In this document: one piece after another, positions 17,753 through 59,100 of the stretch
How positions within the stretch are numbered: position 1 is the stretch's first letter
Layout of the letters: each line of letters begins with the position of its first letter
Assembly (NCBI GenBank): GCA_028870995.1
Contig: JAGWOI010000002.1
Location: 46,463-110,462 of the forward strand
Source: Candidatus Omnitrophota bacterium
GTDB lineage: Bacteria > Omnitrophota > Gorgyraeia > Zapsychrales > Fredricksoniimonadaceae
Reading direction: 5' to 3'
Length of the DNA stretch: 64,000 nucleotides
Translations under genes and position numbers: made by a program
The notes under the pieces: model-generated
The model's input: the letters and a program-made list of their open reading frames with translations, nothing else
Databases searched by the model: none
Told to the model about the DNA's origin: nothing

Positions 17753-17757
17753 GGCGT

Positions 17758-19590: not shown

Positions 19591-19840
19591 CCGGTTTATG
19601 CTGATCGTTGCGGCTTGCTTGATGCTTTTCGCCCCCGTGAAGGCGCAAGCGGTACAGGGCGATCTGGATGCTCAAATAGAAAAAGAATTTGTTCCTGTGC
19701 AGCCTAATGCCGAGGCCCAGTTTAATTCGGTGCCGTCGCTGGATGTCGAGAAAGAATTTTCCCCCTTGTCGGTGGACGCCGACAAAGAGTTCGCTGTGTT
19801 ACAGCCGGACGCAGAAAAGGAGTTTTCTCCCGCCCCTTGA
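19577..19840 (+). CDS. small secreted repeat protein with (D/E)KEFxP repeats
   Basis: Signal peptide LIVAACLMLFAPVKAQA, then four copies of EKEF[VSA]P. Function unknown. The start may be the internal ATG at 19598. Confidence 0.45.
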   Translation: MPRINRFMLIVAACLMLFAPVKAQAVQGDLDAQIEKEFVPVQPNAEAQFNSVPSLDVEKEFSPLSVDADKEFAVLQPDAEKEFSPAP

Positions 19841-19890
19841 AGGAATCAACAGCGACAAATTTGCAAAACGTGGTACAATAAAAAGATATT

Positions 19891-22043
<2,153 letters not shown>

Positions 22044-22047
<4 letters not shown>

Positions 22048-25482: not shown

Positions 25483-25489
25483 CGCATCA

Positions 25490-25519: not shown

Positions 25520-25540
25520 CTAAATATAGAGGACAAACGC

Positions 25541-25732: not shown

Positions 25733-25780
25733 AGTGCCCCATAAGCCATGCGTAAACGCAGCAAAGAAATGAGGCGGGGC

Positions 25781-26578: not shown

Positions 26579-26601
26579 AAGGTGCAAACGTGAGGAAGGG
26601 A

Positions 26602-26961: not shown

Positions 26962-26979
26962 AGAGCAAGGACAAGGCCT

Positions 26980-35814: not shown

Positions 35815-36675
35815 ATGATCCTCATTGTTTCTTTGGCCTTATTATTCGCATCAGTTTACCTGCTGGTCGTCAACCTTGCCCCGCTGGCCGCTGCCAAATA
35901 CAACCAGATCAATGAAACGCAGGCCCAGTCGGTCGTCGGGAAGGTGGACCGGTACCTGCGCGAGGATGAAATCAAGAAGCTCTACCGTCTGACCGTATTT
36001 GGTCCGGTGGCCATAGGGATCGTCGGTTTTATCGTCTTTCCCGGGGATACCCATTGGGCAGGGCTTTTGATCGGTGCCGTCTGCGGGTTTATCCTGCCGC
36101 GCATGTATGTCAACCATTTGGTCAAGGGCCGCGCCAAAAAATTCGATGACCAGCTGATCGACGCCATCATGATCATGTCCAGTTCTTTCCGCGGAGGCTT
36201 GAGTCTGGTGCAGGCCTTTGAATCGGTTGCCGACGAGATGCCTGATCCAGCCAAAGGCGAATTCGGCATCGTTTTGGGGGAGAACAAAATGGGCGTGTCT
36301 TTGGACGAATCCCTTAACCGGTTTTACCGGCGCATGCCTTCTCCGGCCATGCAGCAGATGGTGACCGCCATTTTGCTGGCGCGCGAGACAGGCGGCAACC
36401 TGCCGGTCATTTTCTCACGCATCGTCAACAGCACCCGAGAACGCAAAAAAATAGAAAAGAACCTGCAGACCCTTACCCTTCAAGGCAAGATCCAGGCTCT
36501 TGTCATGACCGGCCTGCCCATATTTTTCTTTTTTACCGTCTCAGGATCGAACCCTCATTTTTTTGACACCATGCTTAATTCGGAGATGGGGCACAAACTT
36601 CTTATTATTTGCGCAGTCTTATGGATATTAGGGGCGTTAACCGTCATGAAAATATCGACGTTCAAGGATTTCTAA
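35815..36675 (+). CDS. tadB: Flp pilus assembly inner-membrane protein TadB
   Basis: 286 aa with the T2SF-like domain and TM pattern typical of TadB. Confidence 0.8.
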   Translation: MILIVSLALLFASVYLLVVNLAPLAAAKYNQINETQAQSVVGKVDRYLREDEIKKLYRLTVFGPVAIGIVGFIVFPGDTHWAGLLIGAVCGFILPRMYVNHLVKGRAKKFDDQLIDAIMIMSSSFRGGLSLVQAFESVADEMPDPAKGEFGIVLGENKMGVSLDESLNRFYRRMPSPAMQQMVTAILLARETGGNLPVIFSRIVNSTRERKKIEKNLQTLTLQGKIQALVMTGLPIFFFFTVSGSNPHFFDTMLNSEMGHKLLIICAVLWILGALTVMKISTFKDF

Positions 36676-36676
36676 T

Positions 36677-37585
36677 ATGGCCCTAGCCCTTTTGCTTTTT
36701 TTTCTGGCTGGTTTTGGTCTGATCATTGGGATTTGGCCTCTGGCCATCGATAACCGGCCAACATTAAAGATGTCCGATGATCCCTTTGCGGATTTAAGAC
36801 CGACGGGCGCGCCGGTTAAAAGGAAGGGGCTGGCGGCCGCATTCTCGGCAGTGACCGGCAAGCTGGCCATATTCAACCGGCCCCTGGCAGCCTCCTCTAC
36901 GGGCAGGCGCATGTTTAAGGACCTGTCCACCGCCCGGATCAACATGTCGGTCGAAGAGTTTTTTCTTCTTAAGGAGATCCTGGTAGGCGGCATGGTCCTG
37001 CTGGCTTTCAAGCTGGGCAGCGGCAGCGATTTCTTTACATTTTCTCTCTTGATGAGCATTGCCTTGGGCTACATGCTCCCGGAAATGTGGCTTAAATCGC
37101 GGATCAAGAGGATCAAGGATGATATTCTGAGGAATTTGCCCGATACTGTGGACCTGTTGGGGCTTTGCGTCAATGCCGGGCTGGATTTTATGATGGCGTT
37201 AAAGTACGTGGTCGAAAAATCAAAACCCACCGTCATTATTGACGAGCTAAGAAATATGATGCAGGAGATCAATGTAGGCAAGCCCAGAAGGGATGCCTTA
37301 AGGGACCTGGCCAAGCGCTATGACCTGCCTGATTTGTCCACCTTTTCCCGTACCTTGATCCAGGCTGACCGCATGGGAACTTCGGTTACAGAAGCGCTCA
37401 ACATCCTCTCTGAGGACATGCGTGAGGCCCGTTTCAGGAGAGGGGAAGCGTTGGCTCTAAAAGCCCCTTTAAAGATGATGATACCTCTGCTCTTTTTTAT
37501 TTTCCCTGTGGTGGCCATATTGGTTGCAGGTCCAGTATTCTTAGACTTCTTCCAAAACAATCCTCTCAAAAACCTTGGTCATTAA
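36677..37585 (+). CDS. tadC: Flp pilus assembly inner-membrane protein TadC
   Basis: 302 aa, a T2SF-like paralogue immediately after tadB. Confidence 0.8.
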   Translation: MALALLLFFLAGFGLIIGIWPLAIDNRPTLKMSDDPFADLRPTGAPVKRKGLAAAFSAVTGKLAIFNRPLAASSTGRRMFKDLSTARINMSVEEFFLLKEILVGGMVLLAFKLGSGSDFFTFSLLMSIALGYMLPEMWLKSRIKRIKDDILRNLPDTVDLLGLCVNAGLDFMMALKYVVEKSKPTVIIDELRNMMQEINVGKPRRDALRDLAKRYDLPDLSTFSRTLIQADRMGTSVTEALNILSEDMREARFRRGEALALKAPLKMMIPLLFFIFPVVAILVAGPVFLDFFQNNPLKNLGH

Positions 37586-37899: not shown

Positions 37900-37954
37900 A
37901 TGCTATACTTCAGGTGTCGACGACAAATCAGTCCCTTTGAAGCACCTGAAAACA

Positions 37955-38110
37955 TGAGCCAAGACTTGGAAAACACATCTGACATGCCCCAAGAGCAGAA
38001 GCAGAATTTTCCTGAAGCTCAAGAAAATTTTGCTGATTCCGTTGTTTTGGCCCCCCAAACACCTGCAGCAGACGCCACCCCTTTTGTCAGCCGCTTCAAT
38101 CAATGGATGA
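37955..38110 (+). CDS. possible 51-aa leader ORF overlapping the giant ORF start by ATGA
   Basis: MSQDLENTSDMPQEQKQNFPEAQENFADSVVLAPQTPAADATPFVSRFNNG. Its stop TGA 38108-38110 overlaps ATG 38107. It has no SD of its own, so this is speculative. Confidence 0.25.
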
Positions 38111-41100
38111 AGGTTATCGCTATAGTAGTTCTGGCGGCCTTTGTCCCTAATCAGGCCAGCTGGGCTTTTGGATATAACCCGTCCGTGCTTTACCGGAACC
38201 TGCCGGTTGCTCCTGTGCAGGATGAAGAAGGTATCGTCTTACCCCAACCGGCCATGCCGGGCGTTCAGGTTGCGGACAGCATGGAGTATTTGCTTAAGCA
38301 AATCCAGAACAAGCCCAAGCTGCGTCTGGAGCTTAACCTGAATGCCGGTTCCAAGGCGCACACCTTGGAAATCGATACCAAAACGACTTTTACTCCTGAC
38401 AAGATCACCCGGATTTCACAATGGCTGAAGACGCCCAATTTGAACGTGCTTAATTGCGGCGTGTATGCCCTGAAAGATATTTTAGAAGCCAACGGTATTA
38501 AGCGTTCCTTGCAGGAAGTTTCGGTGATGACCCTGTCCGTGGACATCATGGCGGACATCATCAAGGTGGGCGAGCCGAAATTAAAAACCACCCTTTTTGC
38601 CATCAACAAGACAGCCCAAGCGCTGGGGCTTAAGTACCAGAGCCTGAAGGTTTTGCCGCAAGATGAATTGAATCTGCCGACACCTTTTATTGCCCATTTT
38701 AAGAATGAGCATTTTGTGACGGTCCAGAAAGCCGTGGGCGGCGAAGTTTACTATACCGATCTTGATTATCCGCATATCGTCAAAGCTGGGGATTTCCTGA
38801 AAAATGCCGATGGGTTTGTTTTGGCTCAACCAACAGAAGGCATAACCGCTAAAGCCGTTCCCGAATCTCTGCAAGCCTTTGTTTGGGGCGATAAATGGCG
38901 CGACATGTCCCAGAACCTGCCGGGGATCGTGTCCGGAGCTCAGCTGGGCATTCAAATAGCCATCTTAGTTCTTAGGATTGTTTTGAGTTTTGTTCCGTAT
39001 GTGGGCACAGGCATCGAGTTTGCCATGTTTGCTTATGAAGTCAGTCAATTGGCCCAAGCCTTGGCTACCATCTGTGTCATGAAGGGCGCTTGCAGCCAGG
39101 ATGAAGCCTTTCTTCTAAGCACAGCCATTACAGCAGCTTTTACCTCGGGTTCAGTATTAGGTTTTGCCATGTCCATTGGAGAAGCGTATATGGACAAGGA
39201 AATTATTGAAGCCATCAACAGCGCGATCTGCCCTCATCCCAGCCAATGCAGTGATACGAGTTTAATCCTTGAGTCAGCGGCAGACGTGGCGGCCACCTCC
39301 GTTGCCAATGCAGCGGCAAACGCCGTGGCGAGTGCGGTTGCGGACGCGGTCAGCAATGCAGTTTCTTCCGGTTCCGGCACAGATCCTAATTCGGGCGGCC
39401 CTGGACCTTCTAATAATGGAAGTCCAGGAAGCGGGCCAAGTCAAAATCCTCCGGCCAACAACGCGCCGGCCTCTAATCCAGGATTAACCGGCCCGGCCGG
39501 AAGTCCTGTATCAAGCCCGACAAGCCCCACACCGACAACTACGCCGACGCCCCTGTGGGCTGACCTGCTCGGAGTAGGCAATAATTCCTCGTCTCCTTCC
39601 GTTGCCCGTCCGACCAATTTTTTTGAAGACTTTGGAGACAGGCTGGAAGCCTCTTTTTATCAGCAACTCCCGCAGGTGGTGGGCGACGTCGCGGGGATGA
39701 CGGCAAGGCTCATTGCCTATAAAGCATTCGGGGTTAAAGCCAATGATAATGTTTCCCAGGCGCTGGGGCTGGCTTTCAATGCCGTGGGTCAGTTAGCCGG
39801 AGAAGAGATTGATCATGAGATATCCTCAACAAACCCAAACAACCCATATCGCAATGGGATCAGCAGTCAGCAGCTTTGGGGGACGGTCATTAAGGCCTCC
39901 ATTGATTTGGGCATGGGGTTCGCGGCGGATGCGGCGATTGGCAAATATGACGATAAAAAGGCCAAGGAGAATGCCGCCTATGCCAATAACTATGCTTATC
40001 AACAGGCGGAGTTTTTCGGAATCGTAGCCTTGACTGCCAGCGCCGCCATGGCAGGCTACATGGCATTGACCACAGATGTGCCCGCAAATTCCGTGACAGG
40101 TAAGAAACCCGGGTTCTTGGATAAGTTTGGACTGGCCCTATTTGCTCCAGGGGAGTTGGCGGCGTCGGCTGTTACCACTGATATCAACGGCAAACCCGTT
40201 ACGGTCACTCAAAATATAGATAGCAATACTCCTTCAGTTTTAGGAAGCACGGCCGTCAATTTCGGCGGCATGAATTATGCCGTACAAAGCGTGGCACCCG
40301 GAACTCCTTATTCGGAGGTGTCAGGGACAGCGCCCGGATCCGGATTTACGGATGTTTGGCAAGTCGATCCTCAAACCGGCAAAAGCTTTCTTAAAGTAGA
40401 TGGGCTTGGCAATTACATGAACTTTATGCAGGTCCAGGGGCAAATGACAGGATGGACTCCTGAAAGGGTCGCAGGCGATGACATGTCCTGGAATGAGATG
40501 AAAAAGAATAATAAGGCGGTCTATAATGCTCCAGGTCATTTTGACGGTCTTATTTCATATACGCCGGCCACCCCCGCTGCTTCCGATAGTGAATTGCATG
40601 ACCAATTCCTGCTTGGCGAATTCGAATCCCGCTCTATCGGGATGCCCGGCCTTGCCCCTGATTATATCGCTGGACAATTTCAGGAAGCGGCAAACGAGGG
40701 GGCATTTAATGCATTCTCGTTAGGTATGTATGCAATTGCTGACAGGATGGCCAAAGAATATACTCCAACAGGAGTAGACCACTTGCAAAACGGGATAAAT
40801 GTCTATAGTACCGGGGATGCAGCTGGCGGCACCGTGGTTGGCGGAGATTATAACGCGCAGACCAATACTTTAACAGTTGCCCCAATGAGAGATTTCTTGT
40901 TAAGCATAGGGCTTCCGGATTTTCAGTTTGCTGCTACCGAGAGCGGTCAGCTTGCTATTGGCCAGGCCCATAAGGATTTGAATAAGGGGCTTTATTTTGA
41001 AGGCGAGACATCTGGCGGAGAGCAGGTAAATCAAAGTTTAAATGGCCCCGAGAAAACTTTAGAAAGGGGAACCCTTCAACCCTCAAATAGCAATATTCAA

Positions 41101-44100
41101 ATGTTTTCTCCGGCAATGTTTGCCGGATCTTTGCCTGCGGCAGGTTCTAACAATGAGGAACCCACAACGATCAAGCCGGACTCTAATCAGGAGGAGCCTA
41201 CGGCGATCAAGTCAGACGAGGGAACAAATACTTTGCAAGGAGCGCCTCTAAACGGGTCGGCTAACAAAGCCGAACAGAATCCCGCTCAAAACACCAATGA
41301 CCAGCAGAAGCCGTGGACAGTTTATCTTTCACCCGTACAAAACAATTCAACTGGGGCTCAGCAGGGAGTAGCTGTTCCCACAGCGGACGTTTTGGAGGGC
41401 AAGGTCAATCCTTCCGATCCTTTGTCCATCGCAAATTATATTGTACATGGCGGAGTGGTGTTCATGGTCAATTCTCCGGGCTCCACTTCAGACGCTCCGT
41501 TTTCAATCATTTCAGGGTTCGCTTCATTTAATACGCCCGCAGGAGGCAGGGGAACTTTAGCGGTTGTCAATGGCGGCCTTGATTATATGCCATTCAATGC
41601 TTTTTATGGGGCAACGGGCATGACAACTAAGGTGATTTCCGGCAATGGCGCTGCGGGCGGTTCCCAACAGACCACGGTATCCGTGCCGGGAGCGCCGATT
41701 GCTCCGGGCGCCGGCGGTTTCGGTCTTTTGAACAACGGTTCTTCTGAGGGGCAAGACATCAACTCTCCCGAGACACAATCTCCTTCAACCAGCACCACTC
41801 AGTCTGCGCAAGGAAACAATGGTCAGGCGACCTCAAATGTCGGTCAGGGCATTCAAGCCCTCGGAGAAGTGGCATCTTTGTTTGGGCTTCCGGGGGGTAG
41901 TTTAATATCAAGTATCGGTGCAGGAATCAACAATGTCATCGCCGGCGAAGCGACACAATCGGCGTCGCCCAACACCACCACCAAGGGAATACTTCAGACT
42001 TTTGGAAGCGGCATGGCGGAGAATGGCTCTCCTATCATTGGCGGGCTAGTGGCGGCATTAGGCAATAAGATTGACCAGGAAGGCGCTTCCAATACCGGCA
42101 CATCAGACAAAGAAGTTTTGGCGGCTCTGGAGACGGCGAAAAAGAGCGGCGGGCTTATCCCTCCGACCGATGCCCAGATCAAGGTGGCATTGGCCAAGGG
42201 ATTCATTCAACTGGATGCTGAGGGGAACCTTCCTTATGTATACAGACCATGGGGCTCTTCTCAAGCTGGTCTTGCCCCGCAGGCCGGAGGGTTAAATAAT
42301 CCATATGCCGCCAGCGGCCCGACTTTTTGGGGAACTGTTGCCAACGATTGGGCCCATCCCTGGGCCAATGTGGATCAGATTAAAGCGCTGAGAACACAAT
42401 ACTTCCCTCAGGGAGCAACGGACCAACAATTAGTTTATGTAGCTACAAGCGATGATCCGCAGGCAGTGGCCGCTAGAAATAAATTTGTCGGCGCCGGGCT
42501 AGAATCATTCCGGTTGAGCAATGGCACTGAAGTGGCGCTTAAGGGGGCTGTTCTTAATTTTAATCCGGGAGACACTGGAGAATACCTTGCGGCCCTTCCG
42601 TCAACCGGGAATGCGTATGCCTTTTATGGCAACTACAATTTTAAAACGCAGGGAAACCTAAACGGCGTTTCACAAATAGTGCCGGTCCTTGTCAGCAATG
42701 AATGGCAGCAGGGATTAGGCCAGCCTGGAACAGAGGGACAGGGCGGTCTAGTGGCAGCAAATGTTCAACAGGCGCTTTATAAAATGGAAGGTGCAAGTGC
42801 TGCCAAGAATCAGATTGTCAATGCAACGGTTCCCGTTAATATGCTCGCGGGGACACAGATTCCTGAGCCAACGCCCGGCCTTACGGTTGATTACAATTCA
42901 GGCAATGTCCTGGCCGCACCTGGTATTGTTCAGGAGGCAAACTCGTTCGGGACAATGACAACAATGAACGGAAAAACATCCTCTCCGTTGGCGCTGGACT
43001 CTTATGCCATAGCAGGCAACGGGAAGGATTTGATTGTCGGCAATGGGCAGCTTCCCGGCAAAGCCTTTGTAGGCTATCCAGGACTGCAGAACAACGATGC
43101 TTCCGTAGGTGAGAAAACCAGCTATACCACCAGTGCTAACTTTTCCTTAGCGCCGACAAACAGCCGTGCAGTGGGTGCGGGAGAAGGATATTTCCAATTC
43201 GCCATCCAGGGCATAAATTGGGCAAAGCCGGATGTCGCTCAAAAGGTCGGCGTGCAGGACATCAACTTTACTCCCGGCGCAATGGTAGAGCGGACTAACG
43301 GGGCATACGAATTTCCATTATTACCGGGCAAGACGGTTACCGGCAAGGGGGTTTTGCAGTACATTCTTCCAACAGCCCACAATAGTTTCGGGATTAAACC
43401 CTTAACAGGTGCACCGGAAACTTTTATTAAAAACACTGCTTTCGAGGCAGTTGTGGCTCCCGCTGACAAAACCATCATCAACGGCAACATTGATGCCAAT
43501 GTTAAGTTTGGATACGGCTGGAACGGAACTTCAAACGCTTGGGATGTATCTGCGGCTCAAAGTCAAGTTGATAAAAATTCTGTATTGACCAGCGGAGTCG
43601 ATCACCGCACGGCACTTGCCCGGCTTTGGTCTTCCCAGGGAGCTTGGGGTTTTGTTGCGACACCCACGGATGACTCAAGTACTTTTATTGTTCACGCTTC
43701 CGGCCCGGCGCAAGCTTTAACCGTGACACCGTCATTGCCATCGGCCGTGCCGGCCAATCCTCCTGCACAACAACCCTATCAAGGCATCCGGCTAGGAGAT
43801 GTTTATCAAATCTACGGAGCAGTGGATTTGAATCCTTCCGCGGACAGGATCCTTTTGGGGACAGGGACACAGCTGCCAATAGTATTAATGAGGAATGCCA
43901 AAGGAGACATAGAGGCAACCTCCATGCTGGGAGCGCCGGGCACGACGCTGCATATGCCGGCCGGTATGCAGGTGGGGGATGTGGTTGTGGCCAACACGGA
44001 TCATAATCCGGCGTCGAACAATGAGATGGCGGTGGCGGTTGGTCTTGATAACAAAAATATGGTTACCAAGACGTATACTGGCGAAGGGATGAGTTTTGTA

Positions 44101-47100
44101 AATGCGGCTTTCCAGAATATGCATGCAAGCGTTAAAGATATTCAAAATAACTCTGCTTTAGAGACGGTAACCGGCCAGTATAAATTAGGAGTTACACTAA
44201 ACAACAACGGTCAGTTCTTCTTGAATCCGAAGGCGTCGGATGCATCGAAGCTTAACATTACCGACAACGCACATACGTTAAAGGCGGCGTTCGGTCTTGA
44301 TAAGAACGGTGCCTTTTATGTGACGCCGGTGTTTGGCAAGGATGATGTTCTGTATCATTCTTCCGGCCCGGCACAGGCCTTGCTGCCGTCAGGTTTACCC
44401 AGCGATTCATCAGCACCCTCTTCTTCAATAACACCATATCAGGGCATCAAGCTGGGGGATAATTACCAAATTAATTTGGTTAAAGATGAAAATCCATCTG
44501 TTGAAAAGATTTTGTTGGGTGAAGGGACACAGTTGCCGATAGTGTTGATGAAGAATGCCAAAGGAGACATAGAGGCAACCTCCATGCTGGGAGCGCCGGG
44601 CACGACGCTGCAAATGCCGTCGGGAGTGCAGGTCGGAGATTTGGCGATTGCGAATAAGGACCTGACGGTGGCGGTAGGTTTGGACAGCAGGGACATGGTT
44701 ACAAGAACGTATACAGGAGAAGGTTCTAGTGTCGAAAACGCTCAGGGCGGCCAGATTGCATGGACATTGTCTAACGGACATTTTCAAGTAGATTTACTTA
44801 CCCCCGCTTTACAGCAGGCTTTGACGCAGGCCAAGGGTGAAGCAGCCGATGAATTAAAGAAGAATGGCAAAGACCTTACTTGGCTTAACGGCCAAATCGC
44901 CTCTTACGAAGACCAATTAAGCAAGCTTAATCAGGATGTGGCAACACAGATAGGCCGCTCCTGGATTAATCCTAAAGGATGGGTTGATAATTCGAGGAGC
45001 CAAAGAGACGCTCTCGCCCAAGGATTGCAGCGATTGTATATGATGAAATTTGCTTTGACTATGTCCACGTCTGATTTGCTGGATATGCAAAAAGATTTAG
45101 GCGATAAACGGTACTACACGGTCCCGGGTGCCGTTATTGATGACACATTAAAACTCAAAGCGGTCAATGATATTTTGCAAACGGGAACGCCGCAGTCCCA
45201 AGTAATAGCTGCGTATTTAAAAGTACAGCAGAATAACGACCGTACCGTTGGAGAGCTTAGTTATTTTGCAGATTCCCAAAATAAATTGGCTGAATCGGGT
45301 GGCGATCACTTGATACCTCTTGGCGCCAATCAATATGAATATCCCTTGCTGTTTAAAAAGGGTATGGATAACCAAATTAGCGATTTTAAAAACGGCATGG
45401 GCCAGAAGCAAGATGATCTAACGGCACTCGTTAATATTTATAATTCCAACAAATCTTCGCTGACACCGGAAGTGCAGAAGATGGTTGAATCTTTGATAAA
45501 GAATACAGGGAAGCTAATTAGCGATATAAATACAGAAAATACTAAAGGAGGCGAGAATGGCGATGTTAATTTTGCCGCCATTTTGCAGACCAATGGATGG
45601 AGAACCTTTTGGAACAGCCGTAAATTTGATTATAACTATGACCCTAATTATGAACCGCTATCGGGAACAGGGAGATTTATAGGAACGATGTGGAATGGAG
45701 TCAAGGGTGGCGTAAGCTGGGTGGGTACTCAGATAGGAATTACGGGTATTAATGGGACCTGGGACTACCTGGTTAATGGTGAAAATAACTACGGAAATTA
45801 TTGGCACGCCTCGAACGAAACAGCTGCCGGAATTGCCACAGGGGACATACAGACATGGTCTCCTTGGGGAACTATTAAATCAGGCGTGACTTATGTGGCC
45901 GGCGTGCCCACATGGCTTGTTAATAGGCAAACCGGAAAGCAGGTTTTTGAATTAGCTTCACAGATGCCGACCGGAGAATATGATCCCTTTGCCGATGCTT
46001 ATAATAAAGGCGGGGCCTGGAAAATTGACTATTACGCAGGACATGCCAGTGAAGTTGTCTTAGAGACCGTTACCGCCGCCAGAGTCATGAGATTGGGGGC
46101 GCTTGGTTCGCTCACTCCCGCCGGTACACTCGCTGCGCCTACAGGAGCATTCTGGGGAACATTAGGGTTCGCCGAAGCTACCGGGTTAGGGAGAATGGCA
46201 TGGCAAGACCATAAAGGGGAAGGGCCTGTTAGTTCGGAAGAACTAAGCAACAATACTTTAGCTACCGTCATTGCTCCGGTGGTATTAGGTAAATTAACGG
46301 GGGCTATTAATTCGACCTATGGAGCGGCTCTGGCTAACACGGCCACCGGGAGATTTATAAACACGGTTATAAGCCCGCTAACAGAAACAGCCGGCGCCGA
46401 CGGGCAAATCATTCCCATGACCGCAGGTACGGCCTTGAAAAATGTTGCTATCAGCACAGGGACAGTCGTTGGGGGTGGTTTGGTATTGGCCAACGCTGGG
46501 ACAATGATAGGAGGGAACGGGCCGCTTACTTTAAAACAAGACGCTAAACTTGCTGGAGCATTGGCCTTGGTTAATACGGGAAGAATCGGCGCCGGGGCAT
46601 TGGCTAATGGTCTCACAGGAAAACTTGCAGGTCAAGGATTCTTAAAAGGAATAACAGCAGGACTTTCGCAAGAGATAAAGAGCGGTTTGGCAAATGCTGC
46701 GTTCACTAATCGGGCCTTATTTGGAGCGGCAAATTCACTGAATTATGGTGTGCAATTAGGCAGCGCGGCCGCTTCCTGGGGCATGATCAGCAATGAATGG
46801 CAAAATCCGCAGGCAGGATTTGGAGACATGATGTCTGTTGGTTGGAAAGATTTCAAACCGGCCTTTTTAACGGGTACTGCTGTTGGCGCATACTCTTCCC
46901 TTTCTTCTCCAACACTTGGTCTTGGCAATAAATTCTCTTCTCAAGTCGTAAAGTTCTTTTCGCCTTCTTCCAGGTGGAGCTATTTAACGTGGCCGACCCT
47001 GGCTGTAGGGGGCGAAGCATTATTGAATGGAAAAAATGCCACCGCCAAAGATTACATCGATGTGGCTTCTATGGCGCTAGGCGCACGCTATCTGGCAGGA

Positions 47101-50100
47101 GGCTTTGCAGCGGGGACGGCGGCAGGAGGCAGCGAAAAGGTGACAGGGTTTTATAAGTTTGGCGCCTATCTTACTAATCCTGAAATAAAAGGACTTACCT
47201 TGGCCAATGTTGGAAGATATTCCGCCTTAGCCGCTACGGGCGCAGTGGCCAATATTGCCAAGGATGCATTGGTTGGAGAATTTGAGCATGCAACAAACAT
47301 TTCGTTGGGCAATAACCTGGATATGTATGTAAAAAGAAACAACGAGGGCAGGATCGTGGCCCGCAGTGCCGTCGCAGCTCCGGGATATAATTTCGAATCC
47401 GACAGTGGTATCGGTGGTGAGCATTGGGACCGGCAGCTGGAAGCTTCTGCTTTTCGCGGCGCTTTTTGGGCGACAATGGCCGGATTGGCAGTTAAAGATG
47501 CAGGTAATATAGCAGGGAATTTCGAAAACAAGTTTGGTCTTGGGAAGATGGAAATGGCAGATTCTTCAGCCCAGCCTGCATCAACTATGGAAGGGCTGTT
47601 TGACAAAATTGCGATTAACCCGGCGGAACGGTTTGGTGCCCATGGCGCTTGGGGAGGTTTAAAATGGATACCCATAGGAGTTCAGTTCCCTGTTTACACC
47701 GGTGTTTATAAATCCGTGATTTTCGGTATAGAAAATAGATATTTGCCCAACGGCACTTTGCTCAACTTAGAAGACAAATCGGTTTCTCCGGATGAAGTTC
47801 AAACAAACTCTGGCGAGACGGCAACAGGTTTGGTCAGGATGTTTGACAGGGGAAGCTGGAGCCTTACCGACAAAGCAAAGGCAAGTCTATGGAACGCCTT
47901 TGTAACCGCCCCTGAAAGCGGGGTGACTTTGAATCCCATGATTGCGGCAACAACCTTGGCTAGAGAACCCGGTGGTCCTGCAAGTGAATGGAGAATCGGA
48001 TTACGGGACACACTGCAAAATAGCGGCTTGAGCGAACCATTGGGATTGGCTAAGGTGGCCGCGGTGGTAACAGGAATAGATGCCGCCATGGACATGACAT
48101 CTACAAGGCATTGGGTTGTCGCCAATCCGAAGTATCCCAACGAAGTTTATACGGTTAATGAGAACATTTCCACCGGGTTTGGCCCGGATACAGGTAATCC
48201 TTTCAGCGAAAGAAGCATCGGCAGTTGGGCTGGGCTGATCTTGGCCATGAAGCCATCGGCGGTATTAAGTAAATCCGAATATGCCATGGACCTTGCCGTC
48301 AAGCAAGCAAACGGCGGAGAACACGGCAGGGCGATAGAAACCCTTGATAATGCCATGGAAAGTCTTCCGCTGGAAAAACAGGCCCCGTTACAAAATTTAA
48401 GATATAACATCGCCCGCAACCAGGACGAACAGGTCTTTCAGGCCGGCAAAGGCAGGACAGCCGGTGTCAATGAAGCCGAATTAGTAAAGCCTTTGGAGCA
48501 AAATGCTGCCGAAAAGCAGTTAAACAACTATATCACCCAATTAAGAGCTTCCGGCAATAACGATTTAGCCGACCAGATGGAGGCAACGAAACAAAACGCG
48601 AACAGCCAAACATATTACAACCGGGCCATAAGCCTTGCCCAACAGGGCTATTTTAAAGCGGCCGATGATTATTTCAATCTTGCCGACGAGTCTTTGACAA
48701 AAGCCAGAACAGTCGATTCCCAAAATGGCAGCAAGTATTACCTGCCGCAAATGCAGATCATGCAGGGAAGATTGGAAAGCTTGAGGGTCCAGCAGCAAGG
48801 ATTGGAAAAGCCTTCCGTTGAATTAGCCGGCAGGATCGGCAAGGCGGCGGATGCCATCGACCAGTTTGTCAAGCAAGGCCTGGCATCCCAGGATGCCGCA
48901 ACCAGAAAAGTTTTCCAGAACATAAGCAGCAGTATAGAAGCAGGCCGGATTGCGGACAGGGCGGACATGATGATTAGATCCGGCTCGACAATAGACGCTG
49001 CCGGTTTATATGAAAAAGCCAGGGCGCTCGATCCGGACAATGCCCGGTATTATTTCTTGCGCGAATCGCAGGTCCGGGAGAAGCAGGGCGGGAAAGAAAA
49101 CCAGGCAAAAGCCATTGATTTGCTCAACAAAGCCGCTGATTTAACTGAAAGCGGCCAATGGTTGAAATCCAATGTCCGTTCTTATGAAACTTTCCGTGCG
49201 GCACAAAAAGAGATGGAATTGAATCCTAATGATTTGCAGGCGGCCGGCCGGCTTGACCAGGCACGCGATAAACTTGTCAGCGAGTTGACCAAGAAAGTCA
49301 ATGCAGCCCCCGAGGGAATACGCAACGGCATGGATAGATTTTTAGTGTCGGTTCTTCGCGAAAAGGCAGAGGCGCATTTGCAAAGAGGAGAATTTAATAA
49401 ATATTTCGATACTAGGCTTGAAATTTTTAACCGTGAGAATGAGGTTGGAAATGCCAGCGCCGCCGCTGATTTTGCCAGGTCGGCAGCCATCAAAGACACC
49501 GTAGACCGTTTATTAAGCAAGTATCTCAAGTCCGCCGTAGAAACGCCCGTGCAAGCCATAGAAACCCCGCAAGCAGCCGAGACGGCCAAGACATTAAGAG
49601 AAACAATCAGCACAGTGAAAGATAAAAAAGATATTTCCAGCGCCAGGTCATTGATTAAGGCGCTGGATGATTATTTGGGACAAAACGAAAGCCAATTGAA
49701 AACAACGGCGGGCCGTGAACTCATCAATCGAGCTACGGACATATTGACGAATATGAGCCAAGCCATGGCAGACAGTTCAGGAGTTAAGATGGAAGAGGCC
49801 ATGAATAAGGCCCCGGAAAATTCTATCGACAAGGCCAGGGCCGCGGAATCGTTGGCTAGAATTGCCATTTGGCAGGAAGCCATAAAAACACCGACAGCGA
49901 GCGGTTTAAAAGCAGGTAAAAGCAGGGTTACCGGATTGATCGATCAGGCCAAGAGAATGTATGAGGCAGCAAAAGATACAAACGGTATTAAGAGAATACA
50001 AGCACTAAGGGGTATGGCCGATGAAGGGTTTAATAATGCCGACCAGAGGCTAAAGACCGGATTGACAGGTCTTAGGAATGAAGTTCGGGTCATTATGGAA

Positions 50101-53100
50101 AGATTGGCCCAGCAGAATGCCGGCCGGGGCGGCTATCTTACTGTTGCCGATATAGACCCTGTTTTAGCCAAGTTGAATAAAGCAGAAGATCAGGGCATGA
50201 CTCCTGCCGAAATCGCCTTTTCCAAGGTGGCTTTATATGCCGAACGGGCAAGGTTGGGGGATGTAACCCAAAAAGCCACAGATCTGCAAGAAGCAGGGAA
50301 TGAACTGGCTAAGCTCAAGACTGCCAATTCTTCTGATGAATTCAAGGCACAAAATGCCGAACATTTTGATCAGGATGTCAAGGGGTTGGAATCGCTTTTG
50401 GAGCAGGTTCGTCAGGAACCTGTACAGGTGAAGACTTTTTCGGCGAACGATTCGGTTGTTACAAGGGATGCCATTATGAAGGAAAGGAACAAAGCTGAAG
50501 ACGGGACGGCCGAAAGCGCCCCTATGCCCTACGGTGAAAATGGCCGCGGCAGCAAGGTTGAATATAGGGATGCCGATGGAAAACTGGTAGGCACAAGGAT
50601 TGAATCAGGCAATGTCATTAGAGAAGAGTGGACCGTTCCCGGCTTGGAGCTGGGCGGCGGAGGAGCAGGGTTTATCGGAAGAGCACCGGATGGAAAATTG
50701 TTGGTGACCATCATTCATAACGGTGAAGACGCTATACGTACCCATGAAATGAAAGAAGCCATGGCATTAAAGTTACAGGAAGCCGCCTCCAACGGCAGAA
50801 TCAATCCCGAGGCTGCGGGGGCTGAAAAATTATGGAAGCAGTTGACGGTAGAGAGGTCTCCAGGCGTGCGTGTATTCAGATCTTCACACGAGTACGCCGA
50901 ACAATATTTGGCTGCGCCAAGCCCGGTTGAAAGAGCAGGCAAAACACAAGGCGAATTGGAAACTCCTGAATCCCAAGGACCTCCTGCGGTCGATTTAAGA
51001 TCCCCTGGAGTTTTTGCCGCCAATGATAAAGTCCTCGAACCATTACCCGTCAATCAACCGTCCACTCCTTCTTTTGAAAGAAAAGAAGCTCCCGAATCAT
51101 TTGCCCGTCTTTATGAAAATGTTTATGGCCCGCTGACCCCTGAAGCCCGAAGAGAAGCCATGGTGCGCCATAACATTGAACGGCTGATCTCACCTGAACC
51201 GTTGAGTGAAAAAGAAATAACTGAACGCACTAAGCGCGATTTGGTAGAGAAATATTTCCCTGCAACAGAGGAAGGAAAACCATTTTCAGGAGAAGAAGCG
51301 TTCTTTAATGAATCCATGAAGTCACCTGCGGCCTCTTTGACAAAGGAAGATTTAGAAAAACTGCCGTTACAAGAAAAGGTTGATGAGTTGACTAAGATGG
51401 CTTTAAGGCGGATGAGGGACAACTTCGTTGCGCAAAATCCCTCTGAAAATACACCCGGAATGTTTAAATACCGGGAGGGGCAGACAGCACTGACGCGCGC
51501 GGCGATTGAGTATATCGAAAGTTATGATCCAGATAAAAAAGGCCCGTTTGATTTAGTGACGATGTCGATGAACATGGGCGCGGGTAAATCGGCGTTGGCC
51601 GAGGCGTTGCCGGTGGTGGAGGAGATGACTGGTAAAAAACTGGCCTATGTGGTGGAAGATGCAGGTTTAAAGAAATTTATTGAAAATGGCGGGATCGAAG
51701 GATTTTATCGGCCAAAGAGCATTGATAACGGCATACTTGATCTAAGCCCGAAAGAAGGACAAAAAGGAGTTTTAGTTTTGAGCCAGGGAGAGCTTAAAAC
51801 CATTGATTTGAATCTTAAGAGCGGAAAATATACTGAGATTAAGACCCCGAGGGTCTTGTCAGACCATGTCGTTATTGTCGATGAAATCCAGAAAATGGTG
51901 ACCGACGCAGCGTTGGTGTTCGGCAAGAGTGATTCTTTCGGGAAGGAATGGATCGCCGAGAACGAACGCAAAAACAACGGCGCCTACCAACATTTGAAGA
52001 TAAGTAAGGAATTCGGCAAGGCCTTCATTAATATCTTGGAAAATACCATAAGCGAGAGAGCCGTAAGCGCCGGATCGGATAGGGCAGCCATTAACGAGAT
52101 GGTGACTTTAAGAACAGGCGAGAATGGGCAACAGATAGTTAATGCAACAAAGTTTAAAGATGACGTCAGGACAACCCTTTCCAAGAAACTCGAAGATTTG
52201 ATCAACAGCAATCCGGATTATGGCAAGCTCAACCTTGACATCAATAAACTATTGGATGCCGGGGCTGTATGGTATGAGGGTTTATTGCATGGCAGGATCA
52301 ACATCACCAGGGCCATTGACAGGCAAGGCTTTGCTGATGCCGGGCTCAACGGGAAGGAAGTTTTTAGAAACCTGGTTGACAATAACCTGCTGGAAGAAGT
52401 CTCCGAGGGTTCCGGGACGGGTATTCTTAAAGAGGGCATCAATAGAAAGACATTTGAAGATAGATTGCGGGAATTAAAGAACGAAGATGGTTCCCCGGTG
52501 TACAACAATGATCAGATCGAGACGATTTTAAGGGCGGTGGACAAAGGCCTAAAAGATGGAAAGATCGTTATCTCTCCCCGCCAGTTTGAGAATTTAGGTG
52601 AATTGTTACATAACCGTATCTTTTCAGACCAAAGCGGATTTAATGCCTTTTCGCGCGTCATGATGGCTTATTTGGAAGTCAAGGGCATTCCCGTCCCTGG
52701 CAAAGATAGAAATGACAGCGTTCCCGTGAACATGGATGATCTTGCTATCTATGCCCAGCATGTTTTACCGCATGAAACTCAACGTTCCACAGGGGCCGAT
52801 GCTTTGCATTTGGCTGGCCGTGTGCTTGGCTTGAGCGCCACCTTGGGTGATTCTCAAGCCCTGCTGCAGTCCATAGGATCAAGGTTTTGGCAAATACATC
52901 CCGAAGCGAAGCTGGAAGACATGAACTGGAGATTCCAGATCGAATCCCAATTGACCACCCGCCAGAGCATGGTCCGGGAGGCCGTCGGGCATGATTTCGA
53001 CAATCAAAAATTGTTAATACTTAACTCAGTTTTGGTACCCAAAATGATTGCTGAAACAGGAGAAGGGACAACAGGATTTATTAACTCCATTAAGAATCAA

Positions 53101-56100
53101 ATCAAGGAACAAATCAGAACCAAACTAAAAGCCCAGGGGTTGACCGATGATCAGGCCAATAAGCAAGCTGATCAATGGGTGAAAGACCATGATATCAAGG
53201 TGATCCCCGAATCAAATCTTAAGAATGGATTTAAGGATCTGGCCGAAGAGGGCATCAAGAAGCCGACCATTGTTTTTACTTCCATGCGTGAAGGTGTTTC
53301 CGTTGAAGTCAAAGACGTGCAAGCCATGCATGTGGATTTCAGCGTTCGTTCATTGGCAGAGCAATTACAGTCCATGGGCCGCTTGAATGTTTACAAGGAT
53401 AATAGACCAAGTTCCCGTACTAGGGGCGAATATAAATTAGTCATTAACACAGCCGACGATCCAAATTTAACATCCGACCAGAAAGCTCAGTTTAACAAAC
53501 TTGCCGAACTGCTCAAATCTGGCAATCAAAGAACAAAGTCCAGAGTGTATAGGGCAGCTGAGGATTATTTGGTCAATGCGGTGATGCGGGATTTCTCGAG
53601 GAATAAGTCTACCAGCAGCATTGTTCAAACCTTGCAAGACAATGGGATAAGCGGTGAGAAGATTTCGGAAGTGGTCAGCCAGGCCCGCAAAGGCCTGATG
53701 CTTCCGCTGATTGAGGGAAGGGTAAATGCCGGGAAGATATCAGGTGATAATACGGTTTTTGTGCCTCTCTCGAATGGGGCAAGAATGGAAGTCCAGTTGA
53801 ATGAGAACCGCAACTTTAATGCCTATAGGGAAGTTGCCATCCATGCCGCCAATAATCAACCCGAGACAAGCATTTCGGAATATGCAAAAATTCAACAGGG
53901 TCAGGTTTATGACAAGATCACCAATAGCGTGTGGACCAATGCCCAATGGAATTTGAAGCCGGAAATGAGGGGAACGCCGGTGGCGGCTGTCAAGGAATTG
54001 GACGTCCCAATTCCTGAAAGTGAGATGGAAGATTTTTCGCCCGACGCTCCTAAAACAGAGCCCCGGATGGTCCTTATGGGCGCACCTCAGCATGTGGTTG
54101 AGGGAAATTATGATGTGGTCAAATACGATATGCCGCTCCTCTCCAATGGAGAAATCATCCATGTACCCGTGACGTTTAAGCACAATCCTGTCTCCGGTCA
54201 ATGGGAACTCGACAAGGAACTGGAGCAAAACAAACATATTGTTGTTCCCAGCCTGGGGAAGGCCAGAGTTGAAGAAGCTACCAACTTACTGGGCCAGCAT
54301 TATTTTCGTTTCTTTAAGCCGTCTTCTAACGGCTCAGAGGAATTGATTGCCCTTGGCGTAGAAGGGCATTTGTTGAAACTTTCTCAAGAAGCGGCCAAGA
54401 AAGAAAAGCAGGTTTTTGAAATAGCCACGAAGAAGCAGGTCTTCTTCGGGCCTAAACGCGGTTATGAATATGTGCGCGGTAAGAATTTGTATAGGGTTGA
54501 TTTTAAAATGGGTGACCGGCAGGGAATGTTAATCAAGGAAGGAATGCTTGTTACTAACAGGGAACCCATTCATTTTGACGGGATCACCATCCAAGCCGGG
54601 GACCAGTTATTCCAGAGCAGGAATAATAATGGCGACAATGTTTGGGAGGTCAGGAATTCCAGTGGTACGCCGAAGGCATTGATTGTTAACGATACGGCCG
54701 CGCCGCTTGTTAACGGCCGCAGGGCCGTCATGGCGCGTGATTCTTTGCGGTTGGTCATGGAAGAGAACCCTGTTGACGGAAAGCCCTTGACCGTTGAAGT
54801 GCCGACAATCCATGAGTATGTCCGTGTAATGAACCCCCAGACTAAGCAGGAAACCTGGGAGCCGGCAGCCATGGTGGTGGACACTGATAAGCTGAAGGAA
54901 TCGCTAGGCATCCTTAAAGGAGACCGTATTGACCCCAATAGCGGGGTGGTCACCCATGGCAACGGCAAGATCAGGGGAATTTATTACAAAACCTTTTTCT
55001 ATAAGCCCGTAGTTAAAGAGGGTAAGGAGATCTTTGAGGTGTCCGTAGGCGGCGACAGTGCTCTTAATAAATATCGTCGCAATGACATGGTAGGTTTAGG
55101 CCTTATCAATGAAAATTATGCCGGGAGTACGGTGGATGTCAAACCTAAGGACTTTATCGATGCTGTCGCCTCCGTCAACCGAAGCTTGCAGAGAATAAAC
55201 GCATTGGGTGAATTGAACAGACAGGTTGGGGAAGAGGACCGCAGCGTTGTCATCAAGGAATTGACGGATGAAATGGAGGCTATGTTGGAACGCCAGCCAG
55301 GCGTCATCGTAGAGCGAATTACAGAAGGAACAGGAAAAGATGAAAGAACATATTTGCGTATCAAGGCCACCAATGAAGAAGGCAGCCGGTTCTTCGACAT
55401 GATGAGTTTCTTTAAAGGGAAGATCACGCAACTGGCCAATGAACAGATTGAAAAACATATAGCGCCTCAATTGCAAGAGAAAGCCATGGACAGGATTGAA
55501 GAATCTTTGAAAGAGCATCCCATGGAGATGGTTTTCGATCCTTATATGGAGCGTAAAGGTACGGCCGGACTGGCGGATAACAAACGCCTTTCCCTGGGCA
55601 CCAACGCTATGCTTGACATTCTACAGTTGAGTCCGGATGCCATGGAGGCCGGCGTACCGGAACATGAAGTTTCTCACATTGTCGAACGATTGTTGGCCAC
55701 AAACGGTATTCCTACTGTCGGCGGCGCTTCCCGTATCACCAACCTGCTTGACATCGCCAAACGTACAGATCGGGGTATTTATGTGGGCGATTATTCCTTG
55801 GGTGAGGTTTATACCCATTGGATCGAAGCTGCAGGGAAATTAGCCAACGCCCAGCGTGCCCTGGCCTTAGGAGACAAGAAAACATTCACGGCATTCGTCA
55901 ATGAGGCGGTGAAAGTCCTGGAACGCGGCCGTAATATTTCCTTGTCGGTCTTAGACACTTATGAAAGGGCATTAAAGGTGGTCGATAAAGCTATCGCCAC
56001 TGAGAAAGTCTTAAGGGAGACCGACAAAAATGCGGAACTTAAGCATATACCAGGGATATTGCAGATACAACCCAACAAAGAATCGCTTTTAAAGGGAGAG

Positions 56101-59100
56101 AAACCCGAACAAGCATTGATCATTGTCCAGGACGAGAAGACCGGCAGGGCCCTTGCCAGGGTGACGCAGCAATTACCTCTGAAAGAGTATCTTTCTAAGG
56201 AGGATCAGGGTTTGACCCCGCTGGAGGTAACACGCAAACTGATAGAGGACAACATCAATTATATGAAATTCCGCGCGGCTTTGACAGATGTTAAAGCACA
56301 GATAGTGGCGCATTTTGTTCAAGACAATACGGCCATGAATGCTCTTAAGCGTATCGAACAGTTAAGACCAGACACCGAGAATATGCAAGAAATGATGAGC
56401 AAATTGAAAGAGGCGGCCGAAAGCGGGAATGAAACTGTCAGAAGCGCGTATGCCCTGATTGCGGATAATTCTTCTGAGACTGCGTTACGGGTATTAGCAG
56501 AAATTTTCTCGACGCAGACGAAGGCGATTCCTGACGGACAAGATATTAAGTTCATGAACCCTAAGACCGGCAGAGGCGCTGTTTTCACCAAGGAGGGGAC
56601 CTTGGTCAGGTTCGTGGCCCAAGAAAATTTTAAGCCAAGCGAAGATCGACAGATTCAAGATATGCGTTCCCAATTTGATGAGACGATCAACTCTTCTCTT
56701 AGAGAACTTTCCGAAGCCCATACCAAGGCCGAAACGACCTTTGATCCGATGCTTCAGAAGATATCCCAGGCCGGTGAGAAAAAGGACACAGCTGATATTC
56801 AAATGTCTTTGGCAGATTTAAGCGATGCACGTCAAGCGGCAGGCAAATTACTGGAAATCGCAAAGAATCAAGGAGGCAATGCCTTTGTCAGGCTGGGAAG
56901 TTCAGACCGCTTTGCGGGAATAGTCGCAGACCCATTGTTGCTTGCACAGATGGGTGTTTCGACAATGGTTAATTATGAGGGATCTAACAGCCGTGAAATG
57001 ACAGTGAAAGCGGGGACGGTATTGCCGGAAAAAGCCTCCGAGGCCATTTCAGCCAGCTTTAGGGGGGTGAACATCACAGTTTCTAAATTGGTTTCAGCGA
57101 AAAATAACGCCATTGAACAAAGGGTGGAATTGCCCCAGGGAGATGAAACCTTATTCAATTTCTTTCGCAACATGAAATATATAAAGAAGGTGGGGGTAAA
57201 GTATGAAATGGTGCGTCAGGCTGCCATTCAAATTCAACTTCAGCCTCAACCCGGCCACGAAAGAGAATTTGCCAACACCTTCTTCCATGAAGATATTCAC
57301 GGCCTTATTGAAACGGATCCCGAAGTTAGGAAGCAGGCTGATGAATATTTGGATTCGAAGAGTATGGAGTATGGGAAAAATAATACAGAAGCCTTTAATG
57401 CGTTAAAGGTGTTCAATGCGGCCTACAGGGCTTTGGGGTATGAAGCAAGTAAGAATGAAGTAGTCGAAAAAGAAGAATTTATTCCTTGGGTGGCGGACTT
57501 AAATACGCTTATAGGTTCGTTCGGCAGCTTAGATAAAATGAGTGCAGGGGAGATTCAAAGGCTTCCTTTACCGCAAGATAAGATTGCCGATTTATTATTA
57601 GTGAAGCAAGGGCTTTTAAATCCTGAATATAGAGAGTATTGGAATTCAGTTTCCGACAATATCAACAGGCTGGTTTCAAAATCGTTTGCCGGACATATGC
57701 AGGGTGGAGTAACTACCGGATTTGAAGCTGAGCAAAACTTCAAAGAGTTAGCCCGACAAGCCAAGGAAAATCAATCCAACCAGGCCATGGCCTCGCCGCG
57801 CAGCGCCAATGAGGTCATGAGCTTATTGGGGACGCCGGAAGGTTTGAGTAAACAATTAGCCGAATCCAAGAAGTTCTGGCGCACGGCCGCAGGCAAGGCT
57901 GCGGTTGATGCGGCCATCAGACTCGCCAAGAGCTACGGGGTCAAGGCCAATTATGACCCCTCGTCGGGTGCCCTGGTATTGACGCTGCCGGCCAACCGCC
58001 AGCGGCCGATGGAAATTTCTGCCGTCGTATTCCCCGTCAAAAAATTGGACAGGGCCGGCTATTATGAAGCCGCAGCCTTGGGCCAGCGGGACGTTATCCT
58101 GGTCGACTCCAGCGTTCCCGATATGCTCACCGCCTTCAAGGAAGAAATCCAGCATTTCCGCGATTCTTTCACGGACAAGGATGAGATTTTAAGCGAGATG
58201 AAGGTCAAAGCCCGCCTGAACGAAGAGCCCTATGCCGGTGCCATGCAGGCCATTCAGACGGTGGAAAGGCAATTCAAGACCGGGGCCATCAGGCCGCAAG
58301 AGGCGGATGGCAGGATCAAAGAAATCCTCAAGCCCGTTGAAGTGGCTTTGAGCCGCGAAGGGTATACCTCGGTTTCTTCAAAATCTTACGATACCCGCAA
58401 AGGCCTGATCGAAAGATGGCAGGAAGAAAAGAACCAGGCCATGACCAGCGATGCAGCCGAGCAGTTCCAACCCATTTGGAACATCCTTAAAAGTGTTCCG
58501 GACTTGCAACATAAAACGATCCTGGCTTTAGGAGAGACGGAAGGCTCCATCCCTTCAACCGTCGGCTTCCTGCAGTCGGCCGGGGCTGATCATGTGACGA
58601 CAGTGAATAGACTTGATTATCTCAAAGAACAACCGCAGGGTTCCGTGGATGTGGCTTTTGCCCGTTTTGCCTTTTATCCTCATGAACAGTTCAGCGCGAC
58701 TCCCGATGCCCAAGGGCTGCGCCCGGCCCTTATCAAGAGGTATGAACCGCTGGTCAAGGCGCTCAAGACCGGTGGCATGTTCATCAATGTTTATGAACGG
58801 CAGTACGAGCCCTATATCCTCAATCCCGCCGAACTGCAAGCCCTGCATTTACAGGCCGCCCAGAAGCTTATTGAGACAACCCTAAAGGTCGGCGATAAAG
58901 AATACCGGGTGCCGGCGGTCATGGTTGTTTACATGAAGGAACCCGCAAACCCGGCCCAGATGAGCATGCCGCAGCAGAATAATTGGGATGCCCTGCGCAG
59001 TGCCCTGGCCAATATCGGCATCCATATCGGCGCGCCTAAAGCCCTCAGCATGACTCCGGCCTTAAATAGGCCTGACTGGGCCATGATGAAACAGGAGCAG

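Follow-up and report, generated by a model that had tools for sequence, protein, structure and literature searches.

What does a peptidase domain do at the front of a bacterial protein of more than 8,600 residues, on which side of the membrane does it work, and on what substrate? The question is raised by a 64,000-nucleotide stretch of an Omnitrophota genome (contig JAGWOI010000002.1; the whole stretch is called the window here), in which a giant open reading frame (ORF) begins near 38 kb and runs past the right end. A sequence-only reading of this DNA had proposed that the encoded protein carries a C39-like papain-fold cysteine peptidase domain directly after an N-terminal signal peptide, and that this domain could serve autoprocessing or the cleavage of Gly-Gly leaders. 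The analysis confirms a cysteine peptidase domain of the C39 family (clan CA, papain fold) in the flagged stretch, and its catalytic triad is intact. With moderate confidence, we propose that the domain is catalytically competent, that it makes up the conserved head at the N-terminus of a giant protein of Omnitrophota, and that it acts as a periplasmic maturation or release protease. Four other explanations were considered and ranked below this one.

The ORF map of the forward strand has a stop codon ending at 37803 and none from 37804 to the end of the window. The ATG at 37954 (MSQDLEN...) was taken as the start because homologues have similar N-termini (MSQNSES, MSQNLEN and MDQNLDN) and share a FxSRFxxWI[KR] motif upstream of the hydrophobic core of the signal segment. 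The peptide originally quoted for the domain, ...LNCGVYALKDILEANG...PFIAHFKNEHFVTVQKAVGGEVYYTDLDYPH, is the exact translation of 38380-38830 (+ strand, frame 1). Its placement at residues 90-240 was counted from an internal ATG at 38107; numbered from ATG 37954, the three proposed catalytic residues become Cys168, His253 and Asp269.

When the flagged 150 amino acids (aa) were used as a query, PF03412 (Peptidase_C39) was matched with 36.5 bits (E 5e-9), where the curated cutoff is 22; this is far more than chance would give, and the score stayed above the cutoff with longer queries (32 bits with 500 aa, 27.4 bits with 4,333 aa). The flagged stretch gave no match to PF13529 (Peptidase_C39_2) even at E<=10. 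The NCBIfam scan returned a sub-threshold match only, to an NHLM ABC-transporter entry. A phmmer search of PDB sequences with aa 103-332 found nothing meaningful (best match LuxS, E 0.71). A family profile matched LahT150 among the PDB sequences at E 0.089, and since this is marginal the match was used solely for residue correspondence.

The predicted structure is that of a C39 domain. An AlphaFold2 model of aa 1-500 has a predicted local distance difference test score (pLDDT) above 90 across about aa 100-305, and the model of aa 100-320 has a mean pLDDT of 90.5 and a predicted TM score (pTM) of 0.88. The top 24 Foldseek matches of the latter in the PDB are all C39 or C39-like domains, including LahT150 (6mpz), PCAT1 (4ry2), the ComA peptidase domain (PEP; 3k8u, 5xe8), 3b79 and the C39-like domain (CLD) of HlyB (3zua, 7sgr, 8dck). 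Superposition on LahT150 gave a target-normalised TM score (TMt) of 0.73-0.74 and a root-mean-square deviation (rmsd) of 2.9-3.4 Å over about 132 columns. The comparison with ComA PEP, which had been suggested as the structural check, gave the same TMt of 0.73-0.74 for 3k8u and 5xe8, with rmsd values of 2.9-4.3 Å over the three structures; the predicted fold is papain-like C39. The matches of the 500-aa model were consistent with these. Together with the PF03412 score above the gathering cutoff, this C39-only list bears out the original family assignment. The periplasmic domain of EpsAB (4g54) was matched with the 500-aa model at a Foldseek E of 0.34; it was absent from the run with the domain-only model and was dropped.

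The folded domain occupies about aa 100-307 (nt 38251-38874) and is larger than the flagged span. In the model its N-terminal extension consists of a helix (102-116), two strands (124-128 and 137-141) and a second helix (148-158). The C39 structural matches leave this extension uncovered, with about 132-146 aligned columns of 221 and a query-normalised TM score (TMq) of 0.48 compared to a TMt of 0.73.

In the pairing of the family profile with LahT150, LNCGVYAL stands opposite LECGAASL, EHFVTV opposite NHFVVL, and TD opposite ND. The Cys, His and Asp picked in the sequence-only reading are the residues that align with the LahT150 triad, Cys27/His101/Asp117 in the published numbering (PMC6363468), in keeping with the C39 layout of a Cys on the first core helix, a His on a beta-strand and Asp as third residue. 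Both the Cys and the His are kept in all 69 close homologues, as is the Asn directly before the Cys (69/69), giving an invariant Asn-Cys in place of the Asp/Glu-Cys of PCAT/AMS peptidase domains. In the close homologues the third residue is an invariant or nearly invariant Asp. For the wider family 172 domains in 161 representative proteins were read, and there it may be D, E, N or Q. About 150 of these 172 domains have both Cys and His, and in just five is the Cys replaced by Ser.

These counts bear on the possibility that the domain is a non-catalytic CLD that binds or chaperones a substrate, as in HlyB. Three HlyB CLD structures are among the structural matches, and the Gln six residues before the catalytic Cys (Cys-6), which is canonical in C39 peptidases, is absent. 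CLDs, however, have lost the catalytic Cys, whereas here Cys is present in every one of the close homologues, His and Asp are conserved with it, and all this occurs in a family purged of Cys elsewhere; the replacement by Ser is rare even in the wider family. A HlyB-like role is therefore considered quite improbable.

The strongest indirect evidence for an active enzyme would come from the cysteine pattern of the protein as a whole. Of the 8,682 aa of the window protein five are Cys, and none of these lies beyond residue 432: Cys168, the sole unpaired one, and the pairs C374/C380 and C426/C432. The following 8,249 consecutive residues (aa 434-8682; window 39255-63999, + strand) have none. For comparison, the Cys content of housekeeping proteins in the window is 0.4-1.4%, and that of three upstream proteins without a Pfam match is 4-6.5%. 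Homologues have 1-12 Cys in about 3,600 aa, mostly as pairs 3-8 residues apart, with the catalytic Cys as the consistent singleton; at one locus (L019) it is the only Cys in 3,657 aa. That one unpaired Cys is kept at the catalytic position despite this purge argues for catalytic activity of the domain. The non-catalytic pairs occur singly and have been lost independently of one another in homologues, so that disulphide loops, which the pairs would form, are favoured over a Zn site, the less likely assignment. The combination of paired Cys with a Cys-free body suggests exposure to an oxidising compartment.

A word-indexed search gave 26 homologues, and a scan of GTDB species representatives gave 45 loci (L001-L045). 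All 26 of the former carry PF03412 and those with a source name are all Omnitrophica; the 45 GTDB loci are nearly all Omnitrophota, with some labelled 'uncultured Planctomycetales' and one 'Elusimicrobia'. An exhaustive phmmer search of 1.84 billion representatives with a single sequence found 254 proteins at E<=1e-3, of which 62 were at E<=1e-30, and these include a 1,006-aa fragment with 100% identity to the window protein. All 150 among the matches listed, of 254, have the same domain type, mostly N-terminal in long proteins. Because its relatives number only 254, and all 150 of those listed share this domain type, the head is regarded as a separate subfamily. Of the 172 domains of the wider family, 153 begin and end in the first 450 residues of their protein. 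Some distant members (P0066, P0078, P0080, P0081, P0094, P0125, P0131 and P0133) have two or three internal C39-type copies, at about aa 600-770 and 1,500-2,000, instead of one N-terminal domain, and their third triad residue is mostly Glu.

When the window protein was compared with the 45 loci by tblastn (E<=1e-5), similarity was limited to aa ~1-400, which comprise the signal peptide, the C39 domain and a hydrophobic segment. The body beyond about aa 400 (window 39150-63999, + strand) is unrelated even in the closest relatives, barring short islands such as aa 572-939 with L002 and aa 3597-3708 with L006 (59% identity). The head is a conserved module on a hypervariable body. Apart from the C39 domain, the only Pfam match in the giant ORF is a weak one to a DEAD-like ATPase near aa 7561. 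This P-loop DEAD/helicase-like domain (60634-60999, + strand; aa ~7561-7682) matches PF00270 with 26.2 bits, at the cutoff, and is probably the counterpart of the divergent SecA_DEAD domains described in Omnitrophota giant proteins.

The proposed signal peptide ahead of the domain has conserved n-, h- and c-region sequence, which in homologues follows the pattern FxSRFxxWI[KR]-hydrophobic-P[DEN]Q.SWA↓F. On average, homologues have 2.8 Lys and Arg residues on the N flank of the hydrophobic core compared to 1.0 on the C flank, a positive-inside bias that points to an N-in orientation, and the signal peptide would be cleaved after SWA. In the motif that follows (FGYNPSVLYR), Y, N and P are each conserved to at least 90%, though the segment is predicted to be disordered. 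Since a conserved Sec-type signal peptide precedes it, the C39 domain probably reaches the periplasmic side of the inner membrane, in agreement with the published remark that such domains occur 'near predicted signal peptides' (West-Roberts et al.). The hydrophobic segment downstream of the domain has an equivalent in homologues, with scores of 1.3-2.8.

A periplasmic location is at odds with the proposal that the domain is a canonical double-glycine leader peptidase, acting in trans on small secreted peptides or bacteriocins in the manner of ComA, CvaB, LahT and PCAT1. These enzymes are its best sequence and structure matches, and its triad is intact like theirs. However, no ABC transmembrane or ATPase domains follow the C39 domain (ABC_membrane and ABC_tran have no match in the 8,682 aa, so the PCAT/AMS architecture is missing), the conserved signal peptide implies that this domain and those of PCATs lie on opposite sides of the membrane, no Gly-Gly-leader genes occur among the small ORFs of the locus, and the head belongs to a separate subfamily with 254 relatives at E<=0.001. 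Such a role appears unlikely. The cleavage of Gly-Gly leaders was also the least supported part of the sequence-only reading, because the domain lies behind a signal peptide and is probably periplasmic, unlike the cytoplasmic C39 domains of the ComA/CvaB type; no substrate of this kind was found.

The domain might also be an effector protease, delivered to or acting on cell-surface proteins of a prey or host cell during predation. Roles in predation and adhesion have been proposed for Omnitrophota giant proteins, and the body is free of Cys, as are many secreted proteins. Yet the domain is membrane-proximal, flanked by the signal peptide and a hydrophobic anchor; strong conservation is confined to it, the presumed effector body being hypervariable; and it co-varies with a conserved secretion machinery and not with variable targets. 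We give an effector function little credence.

The reading that we favour is that of a periplasmic maturation or release protease. The head begins with an extended signal peptide of the Sec type and continues with the C39 domain and its N-terminal extension, a conserved juxtamembrane motif and a hydrophobic, Gly/Ala-rich membrane segment; after it comes the body, which is hypervariable, Cys-free and many thousands of residues long. The C39 domains of PCATs are cytoplasmic, but this one would be exported to the periplasmic side of the inner membrane, where it may act on the giant protein itself or on partners of the secretin-based machinery encoded upstream. Its cleavage site need not be a canonical Gly-Gly leader. 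Such a role would be analogous to that of periplasmic FapD and, functionally, to the LapG-type periplasmic processing of giant adhesins. We hypothesise that the head may process its own polypeptide, as had been suggested from the sequence.

Several observations weigh against this proposal. The Gln at Cys-6, a proposed oxyanion-hole residue, is not conserved; the 69 sequences have N, D, E, G, S or A there, with Asn in the window protein. The structure of LahT150 casts doubt on the role of this Gln (PMC6363468), which makes it a weak criterion of family membership. The topology rests on sequence rules, and hydropathy alone is ambiguous on the number of membrane spans after the C39 domain. The DEAD-like ATPase near aa 7561 has to lie in the cytoplasm, which together with this ambiguity weighs against a firm placement of the body. 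The small ORFs at 22-27 kb include no Gly-Gly-leader peptide genes, being Flp-type pilins only. The giant protein shows no enrichment of GG dipeptides in its 8,682 aa (45 observed, about 63 expected) and has about ten weak leader-like G[GAS] contexts with no repeated motif. Neither the GG contexts of the giant body nor the small ORFs of the locus supplied a candidate substrate or cleavage site. A polyprotein cut at GG sites was also considered; it is unsupported, since GG is not enriched and leader-like motifs are not repeated.

A more specific version of the periplasmic protease model may be offered tentatively. The conserved, exported C39 head could be the adaptor that lets the Tad/type II secretion system (T2SS)-like secretin machine handle hypervariable giant proteins, with the protease acting in cis in the periplasm to cut the Cys-free body or a component of the machinery, so licensing release or surface display. 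If true, this would represent a previously uncharacterised route of secretion and maturation for proteins of at least 10^4 residues, with a specificity other than Gly-Gly. Whether the giant proteins of Omnitrophota exist as single polypeptides or as cut pieces is a question raised explicitly by West-Roberts et al., and the C39 head is the obvious candidate for the processing enzyme. The head also offers an experimental handle of about 230 aa: it is the only part conserved across species, it keeps the catalytic Cys, and it is probably periplasmic.

The features of the head, and the genes of the upstream locus that bear on them, are given in Table 1. The acidic tail that precedes the signal segment varies in length and sequence among homologues, is poorly conserved, and has a pLDDT below 40.

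Table 1. Coordinates of the giant gene, the elements of its head, and associated upstream genes in the window.
Feature	Position	Strand	Remarks
Tad locus genes rcpC/cpaB, secretin (with TonB_C) and tadZ-tadA fusion ATPase	16895..22047	+	PF16976, PF00263, PF00437+PF01656
tadB-like and tadC-like genes (T2SSF)	35815..37585	+	PF00482, E 3e-17 and 5e-18; directly upstream of giant gene
Giant ORF, 5' part only	37954..64000	+	>8,682 aa; continues past window end
Acidic N-terminal tail, aa 1-45	37954..38088	+	1 K/R vs 8 D/E; precedes signal sequence
Sec-type signal peptide or signal anchor, aa 46-71	38089..38166	+	SRFNQWMK / VIAIVVLAAFV / PNQASWA; predicted cleavage after SWA
Motif FGYNPSVLYR at predicted mature N-terminus	38167..38196	+	Consensus FNYNPAVLWG
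N-terminal alpha/beta extension of peptidase domain, aa 100-160	38251..38433	+	High pLDDT; family-specific, ~60 aa
C39-family papain-fold peptidase core, aa 161-307	38434..38874	+	PF03412, Foldseek
Catalytic Cys168 (TGC)	38455..38457	+	Motif L-N-C-G-V-Y-A-L; aligns with LahT150 Cys27
Catalytic His253	38710..38712	+	Motif E-H-F-V-T-V; invariant column; aligns with LahT150 His101
Third triad residue Asp269	38758..38760	+	Y-T-D-L; aligns with LahT150 Asp117
Conserved juxtamembrane segment AFVWGDKWRDMSQNLPGIVS, aa 308-327	38875..38934	+	Consensus AFvWG.kW.d.s..lPGl
Hydrophobic Gly/Ala-rich membrane segment, aa 329-347	38938..38994	+	Kyte-Doolittle 2.08 over 19 aa
Helical region with two close Cys pairs, C374/C380 and C426/C432	39013..39252	+	

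The giant gene is the last gene of a Tad/T2SS-like pilus locus, in which the order is a SurA-like peptidyl-prolyl isomerase (PPIase), rcpC, the secretin, the tadZ-tadA fusion, DUF192, eight Flp-like pilins, three large proteins, tadB, tadC and the giant gene. Among related loci with at least 5 kb of upstream DNA, 31 of 33 have the order unk796-unk926-unk981-tadB-tadC-[C39 ORF], and the C39-headed ORF reaches the end of the fetched DNA in almost all loci (>3,600 aa). Synteny thus links the head module to a Tad-like secretin system. The two exceptions to this synteny, L005 and L009, have about 6 kb of upstream DNA with no detectable tadB or tadC; L009 belongs to a subclade with N-C-A in place of N-C-G.

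The eight tandem pilin genes (24279-27297, + strand) encode proteins of 51-276 aa with sites of the form K/R-G↓Q-x3-E-Y or A↓Q. The 276-aa member (25748-26578) has a C-terminal part that is very rich in Cys. No match to the A24 prepilin peptidase family (TadV/CpaA) was obtained among the ORFs scanned in the 64-kb window, which leads to the idea that the C39 domain stands in for the missing prepilin peptidase and removes the short leaders of these pilins, which end in G↓Q or A↓Q. The small P1 residue of their sites and the strict synteny of the C39 gene with tadB/tadC would be in keeping with it. Prepilins, however, lose their leaders on the cytoplasmic side, away from the predicted location of the exported C39 domain; at P2 the sites have K, R, T or Q and not Gly; and an A24 gene could sit elsewhere in the genome. 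This is a very remote prospect.

Other genes of the locus have features of their own. The secretin (17749-19590, + strand) is fused, unusually, to a TonB_C domain at its C-terminus (PF03544, E 7e-11) and is without Cys in its 613 aa. The TadZ-like (ParA/MinD) and TadA-like (T2SSE) ATPases are joined in a single 718-aa ORF (19891-22047, + strand), the stop of which is overlapped by the DUF192 gene (22044-22400, + strand). The three large ORFs upstream of tadB (27090-29480, 29691-32471 and 32497-35442, + strand) have no Pfam match and are extremely rich in Cys, with 32, 50 and 64 residues (4.0-6.5%). A pseudopilin-like N-terminus, KG↓QAITELAVFGAILIF, is seen in the first, and the order of all three upstream of tadB/tadC is conserved in most related loci. 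The left end of the window (1-13122) is the chromosomal origin region of an Omnitrophota bacterium, with parA, yidC, dnaA, dnaN, gyrB, gyrA and tRNA-Glu, which places the Tad locus and the giant gene within about 40 kb of dnaA. The Tad locus of V. archaeovorus LiM lies at 12-30 kb of its chromosome (Seymour et al. 2023), coordinates that resemble those of the Tad locus in the window.

Proteins of this type have been described. The preprint by West-Roberts et al. (2023, bioRxiv 10.1101/2023.11.21.568195) reports N-terminal C39 domains beside signal peptides in giant proteins of Omnitrophota ('Archaeovorins'), proposes that these may cleave the giant proteins or other substrates, and describes a T2SS-like locus, conserved upstream of them, in which gspD/E/F and rcpC occur together with a Rotamase_2 PPIase and class III signal-peptide genes. 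A second preprint (bioRxiv 10.64898/2026.06.07.730766) gives a 24-protein PF03412 architecture cluster among long proteins of Omnitrophota, and Tad cassettes flanking giant genes. The window has a giant ORF with Omnitrophota homologues, an N-terminal C39 domain by a signal peptide, and a Tad locus upstream. The window protein agrees with the published class in phylum, in its N-terminal C39 domain and signal peptide, in having few other domains, in the far-downstream DEAD/SecA-like ATPase and in the T2SS/Tad-like locus, and nothing essential differs. It is another member of that class, and the finding, although correct, was already known from West-Roberts et al. As annotation, the C39 head repeats what standard hidden Markov model searches and the existing preprints provide. 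Measured against the passages of the preprints that were read, the additions are the conservation of the triad at residue level, the restriction of conservation to the head, the purging of Cys with retention of paired Cys, the support for export from charge bias, and the missing Cys-6 Gln; the family-specific N-terminal extension of about 60 aa is a further incremental one.

Among characterised systems, the PCAT/AMS peptidase domains (LahT150, 6mpz; ComA PEP, 3k8u; PCAT1, 4ry2; MEROPS C39) are alike in fold, triad positions and Pfam match. The window C39 domain differs from them in that it is not fused to an ABC transporter, lies behind a signal peptide, and is predicted to be periplasmic rather than cytoplasmic. 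It also has the extra N-terminal subdomain of about 60 aa, Asn-Cys at the active site, no conserved Gln at Cys-6, and no Gly-Gly leaders nearby. The LapG/LapA system, in which a periplasmic BTLCP/C93 protease cuts an N-terminal retention module, offers a conceptual analogy only, that of a Cys-His-Asp protease near the N-terminus of a giant, Cys-poor surface protein. There the peptidase family is another one, export is by a type I secretion system and the protease acts in trans; no LapG-type match was seen in the Pfam scan of the flagged stretch or in the Foldseek search with the domain model. By analogy, the best mechanistic precedent would be FapD of the Pseudomonas Fap amyloid system, a C39 protease that Sec exports to the periplasm, where it is active, and on whose activity secretion via the outer-membrane channel FapF depends (PMC5557850). 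Its substrate is without a canonical C39 site (PMC5557850). Going by its description, FapD resembles the window domain, which is itself predicted to be exported, in being a C39 protease encoded with an outer-membrane secretion machine, and its activity is linked to secretion and not to the removal of leaders in the cytoplasm; whereas FapD is small and stand-alone and works with the FapF barrel, the window C39 domain is joined in cis to its giant protein and is encoded with a secretin/Tad system.

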